Below are positions 4,236 to 20,795 of a stretch of 64,000 nucleotides of DNA, one piece after another. The stretch is from an uncultured Gemmatimonadales bacterium (GTDB taxonomy: Bacteria > Gemmatimonadota > Gemmatimonadetes > Gemmatimonadales > Gemmatimonadaceae). The DNA is taken from NCBI GenBank assembly GCA_963701965.1, contig OY969695.1:2784001-2848000 (forward strand), read 5' to 3'. Numbering within the stretch: the first letter of the stretch is position 1; the number at the start of each line of letters is the position of its first letter. The notes below the pieces were generated by a model. The model worked only from the letters and a program-made list of their open reading frames with translations. It did not search any database and was not told the origin of the DNA. Position numbers and translations under genes: made by a program.

Positions 4236-4957
4236 CCGCCGCGGAGACGGCGCCGACCGTGGCGACGGTGGGCGTCGTCGCCGCGCTCGCCGCGGAAGCG
4301 CGGTGGCTGGACGGCGTGCGCGGACCGCCGGACTCGCCGCTCCGCGTCCTGGTGAGCGGCGTCGGCGCGCGCGCGGCCCAACGCGCCGCCGAGCGCCTGC
4401 TGGCCGACGGCGCGCGGTCGCTCGTGAGTTGGGGCACCGCCGCTGGACTGCATCCGACGCTCGCCCCGGGCACGTTGCTCATCGCGGACCGCGTGCTGGC
4501 GGACGCCGCCGCGACGACCGCCCTCGAGCCTACCCTGGCGTGGGCCGATCGCTTGGCCACCGCGCTGCAGGGCGTGGTCCCGGTCGCCCGCGGCACGATG
4601 GCGTGCCCGCGCGCCGTGCTGCGGACCGCCGCCGACAAGAGCGCGCTGGCCCGCGCCAGCGGCGCGATCGGCGCCGACATGGAGAGCGCGGCCATCGGAC
4701 GGGTGGCCGAGGCGGCCGGTGTCGCCTGGATCGTCGTGCGCGTCGTGTCCGACGGCTGGGACGCCACGGTGCCCGAGAGCGTCGTCGCCGCGGTCGGCAA
4801 TGACGGCGCGATTCGACTCGGCCGGTTGGCGAGGGCCGTCCTCGCGCGCCCGTCCGACCTGCGGGCGTTTCCCGCGCTCGCCCGCGGTATGCGGGTCGCG
4901 GGACGGACGATGCGCCGGGCGGCGCCAGTGCTCGCCTGCGGCGGGCGGGAAGCGTGA
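4232..4957 (+). CDS. hpnG: Hopanoid-associated nucleoside phosphorylase-like protein
   Basis: [21 protein letters not shown] motifs of the PNP/MTAN fold; directly after shc. Confidence 0.8.
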
Positions 4958-5949
4958 TGAAGGCGCTGGTCACGGGTGCCACCGGGTTCGTTGGCGCGGC
5001 GGTCGCGCGCCGCTTGCGCGAGGCGGGACACGAGGTGCGTGCGCTCGTGCGCCCGCGCGCCGATCGCCACAATGTCGAGGGGCGGGGCATCGAGACGGTC
5101 GAGGGAGACCTGACCGATCGCGCCTCGCTCGCGCGCGCGGTGCGCGGATGTCAGGCGGTCTTTCACGTCGCGGCCGACTATCGGCTCTGGGTTCCGTCGC
5201 CTGCCGCGATGTACGCGGCCAACGTCAAGGGCACACGGTCGGTACTGCAGGCAGCCGGGGAAGCGGGCGTCGAGCGGATCGTCTACACGAGCAGCGTCGC
5301 GACCCTGGGCCTGCGCGCCGACGGCTTACCGGCCGACGAGGAAACCCCGTCGACCCTCGACGACATGATCGGTCACTACAAGCGCTCGAAGTTCCTGGCC
5401 GAGGAAGTCGTGCACACCATGGCCGCCTCCGGTACGCCGGTCGTGATCGTGAATCCCTCGACGCCCATCGGGCCGGGCGATGTGAAACCGACACCGACCG
5501 GCCGCATGATCCGGGATGCCCTGGCGGGCCGCATGCCGGCCTACGTCGATACCGGGCTCAACGTGGTGCACGTCGACGACGTAGCGACAGGGCATCTGCT
5601 CGCGTACGAGCGGGGCCAGATCGGGCGCCGTTACATCTTGGGCGGAACCGATATGACGCTCAAGGAGATTCTGACAGAGTTGGCGCACATTGCCGGCCGC
5701 CGTCCGCCACGGTGGCGGCTGCCGCAGCGGGCCCTGCTCCCCATCGCGTATCTCGCGGAAGGATGGGCGCACGTGAGCGGGCGCGAACCGTTGACCACGG
5801 TGGACGGCGTTCGCTTGTCGGCGAAGCGTATGTACTTTTCGAGTGCGAGGGCGGCACGCGAGCTGGGCTATGGAGGGGCGACGCGCGAACCTCGTCGCGC
5901 GCTCGAGGATGCGGCCGAGTGGTTTCGGGGGGCGAGCGTATGGACCTGA
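4957..5949 (+). CDS. hpnA: Hopanoid-associated NAD-dependent sugar epimerase/dehydratase
   Basis: [30 protein letters not shown] motifs. Confidence 0.88.
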
Positions 5950-6896
5950 TTCTGGCGCAACCCCGTGGCTTCTGTGCGGGCGTCGTTCGCGCGATCGAAA
6001 TCGTCGAGCGCACGTTGGAGCTCCACGGGGCGCCCGTGTATGTCCTGCACGAGATCGTGCACAATCGCCGCGTCGTCGAGGATCTGGAGCAGCGGGGCGC
6101 GATCTTCGTCGAGGAGATGAGTCAGGTGCCAACCGGGGCGATCTTGATCTTCAGTGCCCACGGCGTCGCCCGTAAAGTCGAACACGCCGCCGCGGCCCGT
6201 GGGCTGCGCGTGATCAATGCCACCTGTCCTCTGGTCACCAAAGTCCATCTCCAGGCCCAGCGCTACGCGCGCGAGGGCCGCGAGCTGATCATCGTGGGGC
6301 ACGCTGGCCACATCGAGGTCGCCGGAACTGTCGGCCAGGCGGATGGCCCGGTCCACGTCCTGTGCAGTCCAAGAGAAGTGGATGAGCTCGTCGTGACGGA
6401 TCCGGACCGACTGGCGTACGTGACCCAAACGACCTTGAGCATCGACGACACCCGCGAAGTGGTCGATGCGCTCAAGCGGCGGTTTCCGTCGATCAAGGGC
6501 CCCGGACTCGACGACATCTGCTACGCGACCCAGAACCGGCAAAATGCGGTGCGGGCGCTCGCCGTGCGGGCCCATGTCCTGCTGGTGGTCGGTGCAAGGA
6601 ACAGCTCGAACTCCAACCGGCTTCGTGAAGTCGGGGCGCATCACGGAGTACCTTCCTATCTGATCGAGGAAGCGGGCGATATCGATCCCGCTTGGCTTCC
6701 GACAAACGGCGGGCGGGTGGCGATCACGGCTGGGGCGTCGACGCCGGAGGTGTTGGTGGATCAGGTGATCGAGCGGTTGCGAGGGCTCGGCATCCGATCG
6801 GTGTCGACGATCGATGGGGTGAAGGAAACGACGACTTTTCGGCTGCCGGCGGAGCTCGCGCTCCCGGCGACCGGTGATCTCGAGGAATCGGCCTGA
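5940..6896 (+). CDS. ispH: 4-hydroxy-3-methylbut-2-enyl diphosphate reductase
   Basis: [41 protein letters not shown] motifs. Confidence 0.95.
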
Positions 6897-8032
6897 TGGG
6901 TATTCCGTTTTCGGCGCAGGCGCGCATTGCGCGCTATGTCCTGGGGAAAAAGCTCTCGGGACAGAAGCGCTTCCCGCTCGTGCTCATGCTGGAGCCGCTC
7001 TTCCAGTGCAACCTGGAATGCTCGGGCTGCGGCAAGATCGCGTACTCCAACGACATTCTGCGGCGGCGGCTGACGGTCGACGAGTGTCTGGCCGCGGTCG
7101 ACGAATGCGGCGCACCCGTCGTCGCGATCCCCGGTGGGGAGCCGCTGATCCACAAAGACATGCCGGAGATCGTGGCCAAGATCCTGGCCCGCGGCAAGCT
7201 CGTGTCGCTGTGCACGAACGCGATCCTGCTGGCGAAGCGCCTCGACGAGTTCACGCCGTCCAAGTACCTGATGTTCTCGGTGCATCTGGATGGCATGCAA
7301 GAGCGCCACGACGCGTCGGTGTGTCGGGACGGGGTGTTCGAGAAAGCGGTGACCGCGATCCGGCTGGCGCGGCGGCGCGGGTTCCGCGTCTCGATCAACG
7401 CGACGTTGTTCCAGGGCGAGGATCCCGAGAAGGTCGCGACGTTTCTGGACTTTGTCACGACAGAGTTGGGCGTCGAGGGCATCACGCTGTCGCCAGGGTA
7501 CAGCTACGAGAAGGCGCCGCGCCACGACGTCTTCTTGGGGCGGAACGAGAGCAAGAAGTTGTTCCGCGAGATCTTCAAGCGGGGCAAGGACAAAGGCTGG
7601 CCGTTGACGGACTCGTCGTTGTTCCTCGATTTCCTCGCGGGGAATCAGCCGTACGAATGCACGCCGTGGAGCACGCCGACCCGGAACGTGTTCGGCTGGC
7701 AGAAGCCGTGCTATCTCCTCGTGAACGAGGGGTACGCGCCGTCGTTCCAAGCGCTCATGGACGAGACGGAGTGGGAGCAGTACGGGACCGGCAAGAATCC
7801 CAAGTGCGACAACTGCATGGCGCACTGCGGGTACGAGGGCGCGGCGGTCGATGACGCATTCGCGCATCCGATCAAGGCGATGCTGGTGTCGCTCCGTGGG
7901 CCCAAGACCGAGGGGCCGTTCGCGCCGGATCCCGAGGTGCGCTACGCCCGGCCGGCCGGTCGTCCGCCGTTGACCGTGCTGCCGGCCGAGCCGGGCCAGC
8001 GCGCGGCCCGAGCAAAGGGCAACTCCAACTGA
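6896..8032 (+). CDS. hpnH: Adenosyl-hopene transferase (radical SAM)
   Basis: PLVLMLEPLFQCNLECSGCGK (CxxxCxxC), CTPW, GWQKPCY, CDNCMAHCGYE. Confidence 0.93.
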   Translation: MGIPFSAQARIARYVLGKKLSGQKRFPLVLMLEPLFQCNLECSGCGKIAYSNDILRRRLTVDECLAAVDECGAPVVAIPGGEPLIHKDMPEIVAKILARGKLVSLCTNAILLAKRLDEFTPSKYLMFSVHLDGMQERHDASVCRDGVFEKAVTAIRLARRRGFRVSINATLFQGEDPEKVATFLDFVTTELGVEGITLSPGYSYEKAPRHDVFLGRNESKKLFREIFKRGKDKGWPLTDSSLFLDFLAGNQPYECTPWSTPTRNVFGWQKPCYLLVNEGYAPSFQALMDETEWEQYGTGKNPKCDNCMAHCGYEGAAVDDAFAHPIKAMLVSLRGPKTEGPFAPDPEVRYARPAGRPPLTVLPAEPGQRAARAKGNSN

Positions 8033-9189
8033 CCGCGCCCGGCGCGGCGGCCGCCGCAGCCACGGCGGCCGCGGCGCTGTGGCTCGCGATTCTGCTGGCG
8101 CCGTGGCGGCCGTGGAGCACGGCCGAACGGCTGGATGCCAGCCGCCAACGGAGATCGGGCGGCGACGATCGCCCGGGGGATGATGATCTCTCGCAGGACC
8201 TGGGGGATGTCACGGCGCTGATCCCCGCCCGCGACGAGGGCGCCCTCATCGGGCGCACGGTGTCGGCCCTCGCCGCCCAAGGCATCAGCCGGATCATCGT
8301 GGTCGACGACCAGTCGACGGATGACACCGCCAGCGCGGCCCGTAGTGCCGGTGCCGAGGTTATCCCGGGTGAGCCTCTACCGCCGGACTGGGTCGGTAAA
8401 CTGTGGGCGCTCGAGCAGGGACGTCTGCAGGTGACCACGCCGTTGACACTGCTCGTCGACGCTGATATAGAGCTTCATAAGGGCACTATCAGAGCACTAT
8501 TGCAACAGAAGGCCAGGCGCGGTCGAGTCCAGCTCGTATCGTTGATGGCGGTGCTGGAAATGGACAATGCGTGGGAGAAGCTCCTCATCCCCGCGTTCAT
8601 CTACTTCTTCAAGCTGCTGTATCCGTTCCGCCTGGCCAACGGCAAGACCCGGCTGGTGGCCGCCGCGGCCGGGGGCTGTGTGCTCGTCGAAACGGCGGTG
8701 CTCGCGCGCATTGGCGGGTTTGGCGCGCTCCGCGGCGCCATCATCGACGATTGCACGCTCGCCCGCCGGGTCAAGGATGCTGGAGGCCGCACCTGGATCG
8801 GCCTGACGCACTCGGCGGTGAGCCGGCGCGCGATGCACGGTCTCGCGCCCATCTGGTCGATGGTCGCCCGGTCGGCGTTCGCGCAATTGCGCTATTCGAC
8901 GGCGCTCCTCGTCGCCTGCGTGGCGGTCCTGGCCTTGGCGTTCTGGGTCCCGCCCGCCGGCCTCTTCGTCCCCGCCATGCGCCTGCCTTCGGCGGTCGCG
9001 CTCGTCGCGATGATGACGACGTATCTCCCGGTCCTGCACTTCTACAGGCGTTCCCCCCTCTGGGCGCTGGCCCTGCCGGTCGCCGGAACGTTCTACGTCT
9101 TCATGACCATCACGTCGGCCGTCCGGTACTGGCGCGGCGAGCGGTCCCGGTGGAAAGGACGCGTCTACGCATCTTCCGGGGAGGGATAA
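8029..9189 (+). CDS. Hopene-associated GT2 glycosyltransferase (HpnB-like); probable CTG start
   Basis: Frame reads LWLAILLAPWRPW...ALIPARDEG upstream of the ORF-track start (8260), then VVDDQSTD, WVGKLWAL, DADI, IIDDCTLA, WKGR. Confidence 0.8.
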   Translation: MTAPGAAAAAATAAAALWLAILLAPWRPWSTAERLDASRQRRSGGDDRPGDDDLSQDLGDVTALIPARDEGALIGRTVSALAAQGISRIIVVDDQSTDDTASAARSAGAEVIPGEPLPPDWVGKLWALEQGRLQVTTPLTLLVDADIELHKGTIRALLQQKARRGRVQLVSLMAVLEMDNAWEKLLIPAFIYFFKLLYPFRLANGKTRLVAAAAGGCVLVETAVLARIGGFGALRGAIIDDCTLARRVKDAGGRTWIGLTHSAVSRRAMHGLAPIWSMVARSAFAQLRYSTALLVACVAVLALAFWVPPAGLFVPAMRLPSAVALVAMMTTYLPVLHFYRRSPLWALALPVAGTFYVFMTITSAVRYWRGERSRWKGRVYASSGEG

Positions 9190-10285: not shown

Positions 10286-11326
10286 ATGACTGAGACAATC
10301 GTGAAAGACGAGGAGCGGTGGGCGGCGCTCGACGCCCGGGACCGCCGCTACGATGGCGCGTTCGTCTACGCCGTCCGTACCACGGGGGTGTACTGCCGGC
10401 CGAGCTGTCCCTCGAAGAGGGCGCGGCCGCAGAACGTCGCGTTTTTCGGGACGGCCGCGGAGGCCGAGCAGGCGGGGTTTCGCGCGTGCCGGCGGTGCCG
10501 GCCGCACGCCGCGGATGGGGCGCCGATCGAGCGATCCGTCCGGGCGGCGCAAGCGTATCTCGATGCGCGGGTCGGCGAGCGGGTGCCGCTCCAAAAGCTG
10601 GCGCGCGCCGTGGGCTTGAGCCCGTGGCATGTGCAGCGGGCGTTCACGCGGCTCGTCGGCGTGTCGCCCAAGGCGTATCAGGACGCGCGGCGGCGCGAGG
10701 TGTTCAAGGACCGGTTGCGCGATGGCGCGACGGTGAGCCGCGCGGCTATCGAGGCGGGTCTCGGTCCGTCGGCGCGCGACGGCGCGCCGTTGGGCATGAG
10801 TGCAGGGACGTATCGCCGCGGTGGACGCGGAGAGTCGATCCGCTACACGGTCGTCCCCACATTGCTCGGCGCGTTGCTCGTCGGGACGACGGATCGCGGC
10901 GTGGCGACGGTCTTGCTCGGCAACGGTGAGCTGGAGCTCGAGGCGGCGCTCGGCGCCGAGTTTCCCGCGGCCGACATCGCGCGCGATGACGCGGCCGTCG
11001 GAGCGATCGTGCGCGACGTGGTCGACGCGATCGAGCGCGGCGACAGCGGCGCGACGCTGCCGCTCGACGTCCGCGGTACGGCGTTCCAGATGCGCGTCTG
11101 GCACGCGCTGCGCGAGATCCCGCGCGGAGCGACGCGCACGTACTCGGAGATCGCGGCGGCCATCGGCCAACCGCGCGCGGTGCGCGCCGTCGCCAGCGCC
11201 ATCGCCGCCAATCGACTCGCGGTGCTCGTCCCCTGCCACCGCGCGGTGCGCGCGGATGGCACGCCCGGCGGTTATCGCTGGGGGCCAGAACGGAAGCGCC
11301 GGTTGCTCGAGCGCGAGCGCGCATGA
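10286..11326 (+). CDS. ada: Bifunctional Ada regulator / O6-methylguanine-DNA methyltransferase
   Basis: GVYCRPSC...GFRACRRC Zn site, AraC HTH, active-site PCHR; GGAG RBS. Confidence 0.93.
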   Translation: MTETIVKDEERWAALDARDRRYDGAFVYAVRTTGVYCRPSCPSKRARPQNVAFFGTAAEAEQAGFRACRRCRPHAADGAPIERSVRAAQAYLDARVGERVPLQKLARAVGLSPWHVQRAFTRLVGVSPKAYQDARRREVFKDRLRDGATVSRAAIEAGLGPSARDGAPLGMSAGTYRRGGRGESIRYTVVPTLLGALLVGTTDRGVATVLLGNGELELEAALGAEFPAADIARDDAAVGAIVRDVVDAIERGDSGATLPLDVRGTAFQMRVWHALREIPRGATRTYSEIAAAIGQPRAVRAVASAIAANRLAVLVPCHRAVRADGTPGGYRWGPERKRRLLERERA

Positions 11327-11331
11327 TGCGA

Positions 11332-11363
11332 AAAGTCTCCGAGGAGAAATCCTCGGAGACTTT
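11332..11363. terminator. Perfect 14-bp hairpin, probably a bidirectional terminator for ada and tRNA cassette 1
   Basis: AAAGTCTCCGAGGA-GAAA-TCCTCGGAGACTTT. Confidence 0.8.
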
Positions 11364-11384
11364 CACTACGTGGTGGAAATTAAC

Positions 11385-11402
11385 CACGCCGGCTTGACAA
11401 GT
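11385..11402. repeat. Inverted copy (17/18 nt) of the anticodon-arm region of tRNA cassette 1
   Basis: CACGCCGGCTTGACAAGT versus the tRNA's CACACCGGCTTGACAAGT (reverse complement of 11505-11522). Confidence 0.9.
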
Positions 11403-11461
11403 GCCACGAATGTATGCAATCGCACCGGCGCGGTCAACCGGTAGTTTGGCGCTAACTAGCG

Positions 11462-11545
11462 TGCCCGGAGCGGGACTCGAACCCGCACGACCTCGCGGTC
11501 GCCGACTTGTCAAGCCGGTGTGTCTACCAATTCCACCATCCGGGC
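11462..11545 (-). tRNA. Type II tRNA with tRNA-Leu body but anticodon GAC (Val); CCA not encoded
   Basis: GCCCGGA/TCCGGGC acceptor, A73, D arm GTGGAATTGGTAGACAC, anticodon arm CCGGC-TT GAC AA-GTCGG, long V arm GACC-GCGA-GGTC, T arm GCGGG-TTCGAGT-CCCGC. Confidence 0.9.
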
Positions 11546-11714
11546 ACTCTTCGCGATGGACGGAATTGGATGTTGCGACACGAGCTTCGACTGTCGTTCG
11601 CCACTAGCTAGCGGTGGCGAATCTCGCGCTACGTGAGGCGCGCGTCGTCATCGTTACACTTCGTACATCATCGGGAACGCGGAACTCGACGCCCTGACGC
11701 GGGATAAGAGCCGC

Positions 11715-12557
11715 ATGCCAACACAACTCTTCAGTGGTCTCGTGTTCGGCGAGTCGCCGCGATGGCGTGACGGACGCCTCTGGGTCTCGGACTGGGGCGC
11801 GCGCGAAATCGTGGCGATCAATGGAGCGGGCAAGAGCGAGGTCATCGTTGCCGCGCCGTCCTTTCCGTCGTGCATCGAGTTTCTGCCGGACGGACGGCTC
11901 CTCATGGTGTCCGCGCTCGCCGGGCTGCTGTTGCGCCGCGAACCGAATGGCACGGTGGTGACGCACGCGGATTTGAACGCCGCCAGCAAGCCCGCGTGGA
12001 ACGACATCGTCGTCGATGGGCGCGGCAACATCTTCGTGAACAGCGTCGGCTTCGATCTCTCCAAAGGCGAGCCGTTCGCTCCGGGCTCCGCCGCCGTCGT
12101 CACGCCCGACGGCGCGGCGCGCCGCGTGGCCGCGGGATTCGCGTTCCCCAACGGCATGGCCGTGACGCGCGACAACGCGACGTTGATCGTCGCCGAGTCC
12201 TACGGCAAAAAACTCACGGCGCTAGACATCGCCGCCGATGGCAGCCTGTCGAACCAGCGCGTGTGGGCCGACCTCGGCGACGGCGTCCCGGATGGCATCT
12301 GCATCAATGCCGAGAACGCCGTGTGGTACGCCGACGTCCCCAACAAGCGTTGCGTGCGCGTGCGCGAGGGCGGCGAAGTCCTGGACACGGTCACGCTCGA
12401 CCAGGGGTGCTTTGCCTGCATGCTCGGCGGCTCGGACGGGAAGACGCTATTCATCGTGGCGCGCGAATGGCGGGGCGTCAAGACGATGGCCGACCAGCGC
12501 CGCGTCGGTCAAGTGCTCACAGTGACCGCGCCCGCGGCGCACGCCGGCTGGCCCTAG
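11715..12557 (+). CDS. SMP-30/gluconolactonase/LRE family protein
   Basis: FGESPRW, WNDIVVD, FPNGM, PDGIC motifs. Confidence 0.9.
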   Translation: MPTQLFSGLVFGESPRWRDGRLWVSDWGAREIVAINGAGKSEVIVAAPSFPSCIEFLPDGRLLMVSALAGLLLRREPNGTVVTHADLNAASKPAWNDIVVDGRGNIFVNSVGFDLSKGEPFAPGSAAVVTPDGAARRVAAGFAFPNGMAVTRDNATLIVAESYGKKLTALDIAADGSLSNQRVWADLGDGVPDGICINAENAVWYADVPNKRCVRVREGGEVLDTVTLDQGCFACMLGGSDGKTLFIVAREWRGVKTMADQRRVGQVLTVTAPAAHAGWP

Positions 12558-20588: not shown

Positions 20589-20672
20589 GCCCGGATGGTG
20601 GAATTGGTAGACACGGCAAACTCGCAAATTGCCGACCGTAAGGTCGTGCGGGTTCGAATCCCGCTCCGGGCA
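20589..20672 (+). tRNA. Type II tRNA with tRNA-Leu body but anticodon CGC (Ala); A31-A39 mismatch; CCA not encoded
   Basis: Acceptor and D arm identical to 11462-11545; anticodon arm GCAAA-CT CGC AA-ATTGC; V arm GACC-GTAA-GGTC; T arm GCGGG-TTCGAAT-CCCGC; A73. Confidence 0.88.
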
Positions 20673-20726
20673 CGCTAGCTAGCGCCACATTGCGCGTCGC
20701 TTCCTGGTTTCATAGATTCAAGGCAC

Positions 20727-20742
20727 TTGCGAGTTTGCCGTG
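20727..20742. repeat. Perfect 16-nt inverted copy of the anticodon-arm region of tRNA cassette 2
   Basis: TTGCGAGTTTGCCGTG is the reverse complement of CACGGCAAACTCGCAA (20612-20627). Confidence 0.92.
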
Positions 20743-20743
20743 G

Positions 20744-20776
20744 CGAGCCCCGGGGAGAGATCCTCGGGGTTCGTTT
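20744..20776 (+). terminator. 13-bp hairpin with GAGA loop, terminator-like
   Basis: CGAGCCCCGGGGA-GAGA-TCCTCGGGGTTCG then TTT; core resembles the 11332-11363 hairpin. Confidence 0.7.
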
Positions 20777-20795
20777 GCATCGGAGCGTGTGCGGC

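Follow-up and report, generated by a model that had tools for sequence, protein, structure and literature searches.

The window analysed here, a 64,000-nucleotide stretch of the genome of an uncultured Gemmatimonadales bacterium (G000; 5.1 Mb, 67% GC), carries at 11462..11545 on the minus strand a tRNA gene with a tRNA-Leu-type body and an anticodon that does not belong to leucine. ARAGORN calls it tRNA-Val(gac) at 11461-11545(-), and Rfam matches 11462-11545(-) to RF00005 with 57.8 bits. Folding of the mature RNA (z -3.0) gives a cloverleaf of the 7/5 type that has a long variable arm, and direct reading of the sequence finds A15, G18G19, A20a, U48, A73 and C2-G71 in a molecule that lacks an encoded CCA and whose anticodon is GAC (11511-11509). 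The nearest ordinary tRNAs in the genome are tRNA-Leu genes, with 72-74% identity by blastn. The canonical leucine cloverleaf with a valine anticodon that the first-pass annotation had described is therefore borne out. Seven of ten phage matches to this tRNA are annotated as tRNA-Leu, two are unannotated and one lies under a protein gene; in plasmid and phage collections the matches were to the tRNA body only, and none covered the tRNA together with the predicted small RNA downstream, the unit referred to here as cassette A. G000 has a full set of ordinary tRNAs for Leu (GAG/CAG/TAG/CAA/TAA), Val (GAC/TAC/CAC) and Ala (CGC/GGC/TGC), and tRNA A is therefore an extra gene; the ordinary tRNA-Val(GAC), which the first-pass annotation had advised looking for, is among them. 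A degenerate copy of that ordinary gene lies at G000:C1:1809504-1809573(-), 25 kb from the intact one.

Downstream on the same strand, what had been described as a trailer of tRNA A looks like a second, separately promoted small-RNA gene. A sigma70-type promoter, TTGACC-17-TACATT (11409..11437, minus strand), is the sole sigma70-like match in 11250-11760 and lies on the tRNA strand, with 0.0 matches expected in shuffles. Six nucleotides past its end begins the antisense block of predicted small RNA A (11330..11402, minus strand, ~73 nt), the putative antitoxin, which is delimited by promoter, complementarity and hairpin. An 18-nt inverted repeat (17/18) joins the anticodon arm of the tRNA to 11385-11402, where the single-stranded 5′ block of the small RNA (11402-11385, minus strand) carries the codon triplet GTC at 11398-11396; the predicted free 5′ end of 13 nt holds this codon as GUC, and a second block (11383-11370, minus strand) is complementary in sequence to the D arm. 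The RNA would end in a 14-bp hairpin with a short run of U after it (11332..11363, z -6.4), a likely terminator that is probably common to the convergent Ada-like O6-methylguanine methyltransferase gene flanking the cassette on the outside (10307..11326, plus strand); a strict terminator scan did not call this hairpin. In co-folding, small RNA A pairs with its own tRNA at -11.5 kcal/mol and with the ordinary tRNA-Val(GAC) at +1.3. The first-pass annotation had seen that the trailer independently carries GTC, and the segment does stand in register with the anticodon; what it missed is that the segment appears to be a promoted antisense RNA and that the tRNA belongs to a family with 16 anticodons. 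Because the antisense segment carries GTC in register and the same pairing co-varies across the family, an assembly error turning GAG into GAC is ruled out and a sequencing error is very unlikely. A 151-nt contig from a public DNA run is identical to 11539-11689, a span that leaves the anticodon outside. The idea of the antisense segment as a mere cis fold-back trailer was dropped once the promoter was found, and a read-through transcript would still include it.

Both paralogs of this gene in G000 have the layout of cassette A, each with its own antisense sequence. Cassette B (plus strand) comprises a paralogous tRNA-Leu-type body with the Ala anticodon CGC (20589..20672; ARAGORN, Rfam and blastn), a promoter predicted by scan, TTGCGC-17-TAGATT (20690..20718), and predicted small RNA B (20725..20778), in which a 16-nt perfect complement of the anticodon arm of tRNA B is followed by a hairpin at 20745-20772. 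The third Leu-body gene (L166; G000:C1:2559322-2559405, minus strand), also with anticodon CGC, has its own promoter and antisense RNA. For each of the three small RNAs the best binder in co-folding was its own tRNA, among 62 ARAGORN calls. Immediately upstream of L166 stands a second copy of part of its leader and of a terminator-like hairpin.

The sequence ahead of tRNA A may also affect its folding. A 5′ leader predicted from folding and complementarity (11546..11615, minus strand) contains an arm predicted to pair with the trailer (11613-11602) and two stretches complementary to the tRNA, one to the anticodon and the 3′ strand of the D arm (11591-11577), the other to the D arm (11572-11555), all on the minus strand. 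The trailer arm of this leader-trailer helix around the tRNA (11450..11463, minus strand) shows compensatory changes at 3/7 pairs in a 12-sequence subfamily alignment; such changes around the cloverleaf are convincing only in that subfamily, one row of which is partly misregistered. In the predicted precursor of cassette A the cloverleaf is buried, the acceptor-stem probability falling from 0.98 to about 2e-5 and a non-cloverleaf fold being favoured by about 9 kcal/mol; family means fall from 0.89 to 0.27, and those of 20 ordinary Leu tRNAs from 0.95 to 0.50. The own leader was within the best 10% in 23/73, and the counts for the leader-trailer helix (16/92) and for pairing between promoter region and small RNA (10/63) are near chance, so that a family-wide leader latch was set aside and, specificity across the family being weak, leader control as a second layer is tentative. 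A weak promoter for the tRNA precursor is possible at 11620..11651 (minus strand), an uncertain call with a poor consensus match; its -10-like hexamer (11625-11620) is inferior to the -10 boxes of aligned homologs. A conserved tRNA promoter was not borne out: across the family, only a diffuse excess of -10-like hexamers is visible, 60-120 nt upstream. Since its precursor favours a non-cloverleaf fold and its own promoter is poor, the copy in cassette A may seldom mature.

Distribution of the layout and co-variation with the anticodon

Related genes were sought in several scans, in which matching tRNAs received locus labels (L-numbers) and antisense was scored positive at a value of at least 12. 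A pattern of Leu-type D arm, anticodon ending in C or T and T arm, with D-loop letters forced, found 18 genes in 13/401 genomes of the phylum, all with C36. A scan of the order for anticodons whose middle base is not A and whose last base is A or G gave 3/271 genomes, all with GCG and all with antisense and promoter. The scan of species genomes, limited to C36, yielded 117 tRNAs at 116 loci, and 111 remained after six with <130 nt of downstream DNA had been dropped. Antisense reached the threshold in 71/111 of these Leu-body, non-Leu-anticodon tRNAs: 58/61 in Gemmatimonadota, 11/14 in Planctomycetota, 1/5 in Acidobacteriota, 1/6 in Actinomycetota and 0/25 in other groups. The lone Actinomycetota positive (L242) is nearly identical to L239 of Gemmatimonadota and is possibly misbinned; almost all carriers are metagenome-assembled genomes. 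Antisense was found downstream of none of 22 ordinary Leu tRNAs, in 5/109 upstream flanks and in 2% of 873 cross-pairs with another anticodon.

Of the 71 positives, 67 have a promoter ahead of the antisense, mostly by 3-8 nt (2.3 in shuffles, maximum 4; 3/40 among antisense-negative tRNAs), and the exact codon lies opposite the anticodon in 64/67. Terminators follow 63/69 of the small RNAs by a loose rule applied without a control, and the codon triplet is predicted to be mostly unpaired (>0.7) in 45% of 60. Among the matches listed in a metagenome scan for other anticodons, antisense accompanied 17 of 112 distinct tRNAs, with Arg, His, Pro and Ser anticodons. Viral contigs provided two distinct cassettes among eight loci (L152, L154), and 0/16 for the other anticodon class. 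A small toxic peptide was considered and rejected: a loose start/stop scan matched 54/92 cassettes and is uninformative because it had no control, and no conserved frame was evident in alignments.

The acceptor stem, which the search pattern left unconstrained, is full in 65/71 antisense-positive versus 20/40 antisense-negative tRNAs. Because 40/111 of the Leu-body tRNAs with odd anticodons, and most of the viral ones, have no antisense RNA, such tRNAs can persist without one. Several kinds of related tRNA were seen in passing. Leu-body tRNAs with Gly, Ala or Asp anticodons and without antisense (L177, L182, L184, L194, L196, L219, L222, L224, L235, L241 and others) occur in Bacteroidota, Bacillota, Saccharibacteria and Solirubrobacterales; in half of them the 3′ strand of the acceptor stem is disrupted, and they are possibly a separate class. 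Intact Leu bodies with the stop anticodons TTA, TCA and CTA (L300, L305, L307, L319, L321, L322, L334, L338, L417, L413), found in metagenomes and phages without antisense, are candidate natural nonsense suppressors, some TTA calls being frame-shifted ordinary TAA loops. Two Leu-body tRNAs (CGC, CAC) lie 540 bp apart on a Gemmatimonadales contig (L206:2501-3099), with no antisense detected within 130 nt, and five phage tRNAs with the Asn anticodon GTT, a Leu-type D arm and a long variable arm (L032, L044, L082, L105, L428) lie inside tRNA arrays.

To follow co-variation, 92 distinct cassettes with 16 anticodons were compared: three from G000, 70 from the genome scan, 17 from metagenomes and two from viral contigs. 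The rows were chosen with a score slightly favouring G:U. The best pairing register covers the anticodon in 85/92. In these 85, positions 34-36 are Watson-Crick paired in 252/255 cases and complementarity drops on both sides, with 998 Watson-Crick, 44 G:U, 23 A:C and 40 other combinations over positions 27-39; the second block, against the D arm, is present in 48/92 compared with 6/92 in the control. A tree built without the anticodon columns (92 rows, 147 columns, many forks unresolved), in which the G000 cassettes group with Gemmatimonadaceae and Gemmatimonadales records, requires 46 anticodon changes against a minimum of 15, and the nearest neighbour of 63/92 cassettes has a different anticodon. 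Kin in the tree are not independent, but the pairs L257 (CGC)/L404 (CGG), 0.98 alike, and L250 (CGC)/L328 (TGG), 0.94 alike, are separate events, and in both the anticodon and the small RNA changed together. Net predicted binding is -19.6 kcal/mol for own pairs versus -3.9 for cross pairs. At the level of sequence, these comparisons show the promoter-antisense-hairpin layout and its co-evolution with the tRNA, the predicted antisense RNA following the switches of the anticodon. In a mainly Planctomycetota and viral branch (L186, L187, L197, L208, L229, L261, L152, L154, L301, L315) pairing of the small RNA with the anticodon is outweighed by its pairing with the variable arm and with the 3′ side of the anticodon arm.

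Charging and decoding

Leucine identity in E. coli is set by A73, A15-U48, G18G19 and A20a and not by the anticodon (PMC9976931). Within the family, A73 is kept in 70/71 antisense-positive tRNAs and 91/92 cassettes and U48 in 71/73, neither being forced by the search pattern, and A37 is strictly retained. That one body carries 16 anticodons points to the anticodon-blind LeuRS as the charging enzyme. The identity determinants of tRNA-Val are A35, C36, A73, G3-C70, U4-A69 and G20 (PMC9976931). The first-pass annotation had noted that tRNA A contains A35, C36 and A73, and it does, so partial or dual charging by ValRS is possible for this GAC member; in place of the other valine features it has C3-G70, C4-G69, U20 and a long arm, not G3-C70, U4-A69, G20 and a short variable loop. 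Valine charging cannot explain the family, because its Ala-anticodon members lack G3:U70 (0/32) and its Asp-anticodon members have A73 (12/12). If matured and free, tRNA A would most likely insert leucine at GUC/GUU codons.

A benign extra tRNA-Val, or a duplicate in decay with an inverted repeat that template switching at the DNA level keeps matched, would fit the presence of A35, C36 and A73 and the frequency of GUC, and inverted repeats 60-100 bp apart could homogenise. It is nevertheless very unlikely, given that Ala, Asp, Gly, Glu, Pro, Arg and His anticodons sit on the same body without the determinants of their synthetases, that among 19 Val-anticodon members G3-C70 occurs in four and U4-A69 and G20 in none, that a promoter stands precisely at the start of the antisense, and that the repeats are perfect in just 29/85 pairs, with mismatches leaning to G:U.

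The codons that these tRNAs would read are common ones. The six commonest anticodons of the family read codons ranked 1, 4, 9, 2, 10 and 3 in G000, where GUC and GUU, which the first-pass annotation had called very common in the genes of the window, are among the commonest, and the bias towards common codons also appears in the unrestricted scans of the order and phylum. When induced, a missense allo-tRNA stopped the growth of E. coli and killed it (PMC5389517), and a free miscoding tRNA should for that reason be harmful.

A tRNA that does not translate might instead serve as a mimic or decoy, an anticodon-nuclease bait or a sink for LeuRS or EF-Tu, masked or released by the small RNA. The burial of the cloverleaf in the predicted precursor fold agrees with such a role, as does an anticodon stem of only four pairs in 21/71, and some allo-tRNAs are translation-inactive yet toxic (PMC5389517). 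Against it, A73, U48, the acceptor stem and A37 are strictly retained, selection concentrates on the three bases of the anticodon, and the anticodons match the commonest codons; a decoy is accordingly a distinctly improbable account of the family.

Genomic context and candidate function

Beside cassette A, on its tRNA side, lies an SMP-30/gluconolactonase-family gene (11715..12557, plus strand), possible cargo that is absent together with the cassette at the orthologous site of three congeners: G001, G003 and G004 lack the interval of about 11327-12553 and have Ada no more than about 25 bp from copD, and G002 and G005 are uninformative at this site. The cassette has 59% GC, its conserved flanking genes 73-74%. 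G002 and G005 lack cassette B, which G000, G001, G003 and G004 carry. Elsewhere in the window, 4954-9189 holds putative epimerase, IspH-like, radical SAM and glycosyltransferase genes, a cluster that looks related to hopanoids. The 76 nearest ORFs of 42 loci include no conserved protein partner, integrase or cas family, and one ArgRS match is the only synthetase neighbour among them. A link to DNA repair, suggested by Ada, radical SAM and MutS neighbours, proved not to be general across loci. Specific PADLOC matches occur within 2.5 kb of 5-6/45 cassettes versus 0/36 control windows (p 0.03-0.06), an excess that is a hint only, because 78/145 ORFs at cassette loci and 150/165 control ORFs were covered, generic kinase, helicase, AAA and ankyrin matches were set aside by judgement, and the controls come from four genomes. 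Immediately downstream of one phage-borne cassette (GCC; L429:195-1800) come a small ORF of membrane-like character and a ThsB-like TIR gene, and a Fic-like gene is close by.

The C4 antisense RNAs of phages P1 and P7 and the CI RNA of P4 are not tRNAs but cloverleaf-like RNAs, flanked by complementary segments, that control an operon downstream of them. By analogy, the tRNA-shaped RNA could act as a regulator whose target, the complementary segment, belongs to the leader of a gene downstream; complementary segments do lie on both sides of the cloverleaf, followed by a terminator, and C4 RNA is a substrate of RNase P (PMC11143913). We give this reading hardly any credence, since the next ORF runs in the opposite direction in 21/36 loci, and likewise in cassette A, the gene downstream of cassette B keeps its own promoter in congeners that lack the cassette, and Rfam matched nothing but tRNAs in the window.

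The interpretation that we favour, and consider probable on the strength of sequence and predicted structure, is an RNA-only toxin-antitoxin cassette of ~300 nt, in which a candidate miscoding tRNA is silenced by a predicted anti-tRNA small RNA. The tRNA would be transcribed weakly as a precursor whose leader delays folding, and after cleavage by RNase P and addition of CCA it would be charged with leucine by LeuRS. If free, it would misread GUC/GUU, and its paralogs GCG, GCC, GAC, GUG and GGC, all among the commonest host codons, with toxic effect. The strongly promoted small RNA would use its free 5′ end to invade the anticodon loop, unfold the arm and neutralise the tRNA. If the cassette were lost or transcription stopped, the small RNA would decay first and the tRNA would be released, resulting in addiction or abortive infection.

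The same anatomy would be expected of a regulated, beneficial mistranslation, with the small RNA as a dimmer permitting low-level leucine substitution under stress. Retention of cassettes at orthologous sites of several congeners (cassette B in G000, G001, G003 and G004) and the Ada-like repair and radical SAM genes among the flanks of A and B are compatible with this role, and dedicated mistranslation has a precedent in tRNA-ProX (PMC11415595). It seems improbable all the same: no particular substitution is conserved, as the anticodon switches freely even at one locus, the neighbours are heterogeneous, and the presence of the cassettes is patchy (the 13/401 genomes of the phylum). A further-reaching form of the toxin-antitoxin reading is tentative, and we rate it as rather unlikely: the cassettes would be widespread, protein-free abortive-infection modules made of a stable miscoding tRNA and a labile anti-anticodon RNA, in which the shut-off of transcription by a phage lets leucine flood the proteome. 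On this view, anticodon switches compensated in the small RNA would give pairs that do not cross-react, so that one genome can stack several, as with the three in G000.

If the favoured interpretation is correct, the cassettes constitute a toxin-antitoxin system with a tRNA as toxin and a natural antisense RNA against the anticodon as antitoxin, and they offer a natural, reprogrammable on/off switch for codon reassignment. They would also explain how genomes tolerate mismatched, expectedly lethal tRNAs, a question left open by the allo-tRNA work. Even without toxicity, a co-evolving tRNA/anti-tRNA pair is a new regulatory layout, and annotation pipelines mislabel the cassette tRNAs as ordinary tRNA-Val or tRNA-Ala.

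Comparison with known systems

No tRNA/anti-tRNA pair is described in the literature searched, the scope of which excluded subscription journals and bioRxiv supplements. In type I systems the toxin transcript is subject to fold-back control, a logic that the predicted inhibitory precursor fold of the cassette resembles. An antisense RNA neutralises the toxin transcript in these systems (PMC10767807), as is proposed for the cassette, which differs in that it has no evident toxin protein and its antitoxin is not encoded on the opposite strand. A parallel exists with type VIII systems (CreTA, SdsR-RyeA), where toxin and antitoxin are both RNAs and adjacent on the chromosome (PMC10767807), as they would be in the candidate cassette; TADB 3.0 names these two as the only validated type VIII loci. 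CreT sequesters a tRNA and CreA represses transcription via Cascade (PMC10767807), whereas the candidate toxin of the cassette is itself a tRNA. The CreTA antitoxin is derived from a CRISPR repeat and lies beside cas genes; the 76 ORFs nearest to the cassettes include no cas family, and in the window Rfam detected tRNAs only. SdsR and RyeA overlap on opposite strands, whereas the predicted antitoxin of the cassette is a downstream gene on the same strand that would pair with the anticodon arm. In contrast to the C4 and CI RNAs, the cassettes usually have no downstream gene on the same strand and keep the full tRNA-Leu anatomy.

With regard to unusual tRNAs, the tRNA-ProX genes of Streptomyces (ProA/ProN/ProT) likewise place several non-cognate anticodons on one body, and they cause mistranslation (PMC11415595). 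They combine a Pro body with an adjacent, dedicated ProRSx gene (PMC11415595), whereas the cassettes combine a Leu body with an antisense RNA and have no conserved protein neighbour. The allo-tRNAs of Mukai et al. (PMC5389517) share with the cassette tRNAs a class II body, an identity blind to the anticodon and diverse anticodons; they were reported from soil bacteria, cause lethal missense suppression in E. coli and occur near toxin-antitoxin genes, and the main text of that article describes no partner RNA. The two groups differ in build, the allo-tRNAs being 8/4 or 9/3 molecules with G73 or U73 and Ser or Ala identity (PMC5389517) and the cassette tRNAs 7/5 molecules with A73 and Leu features.
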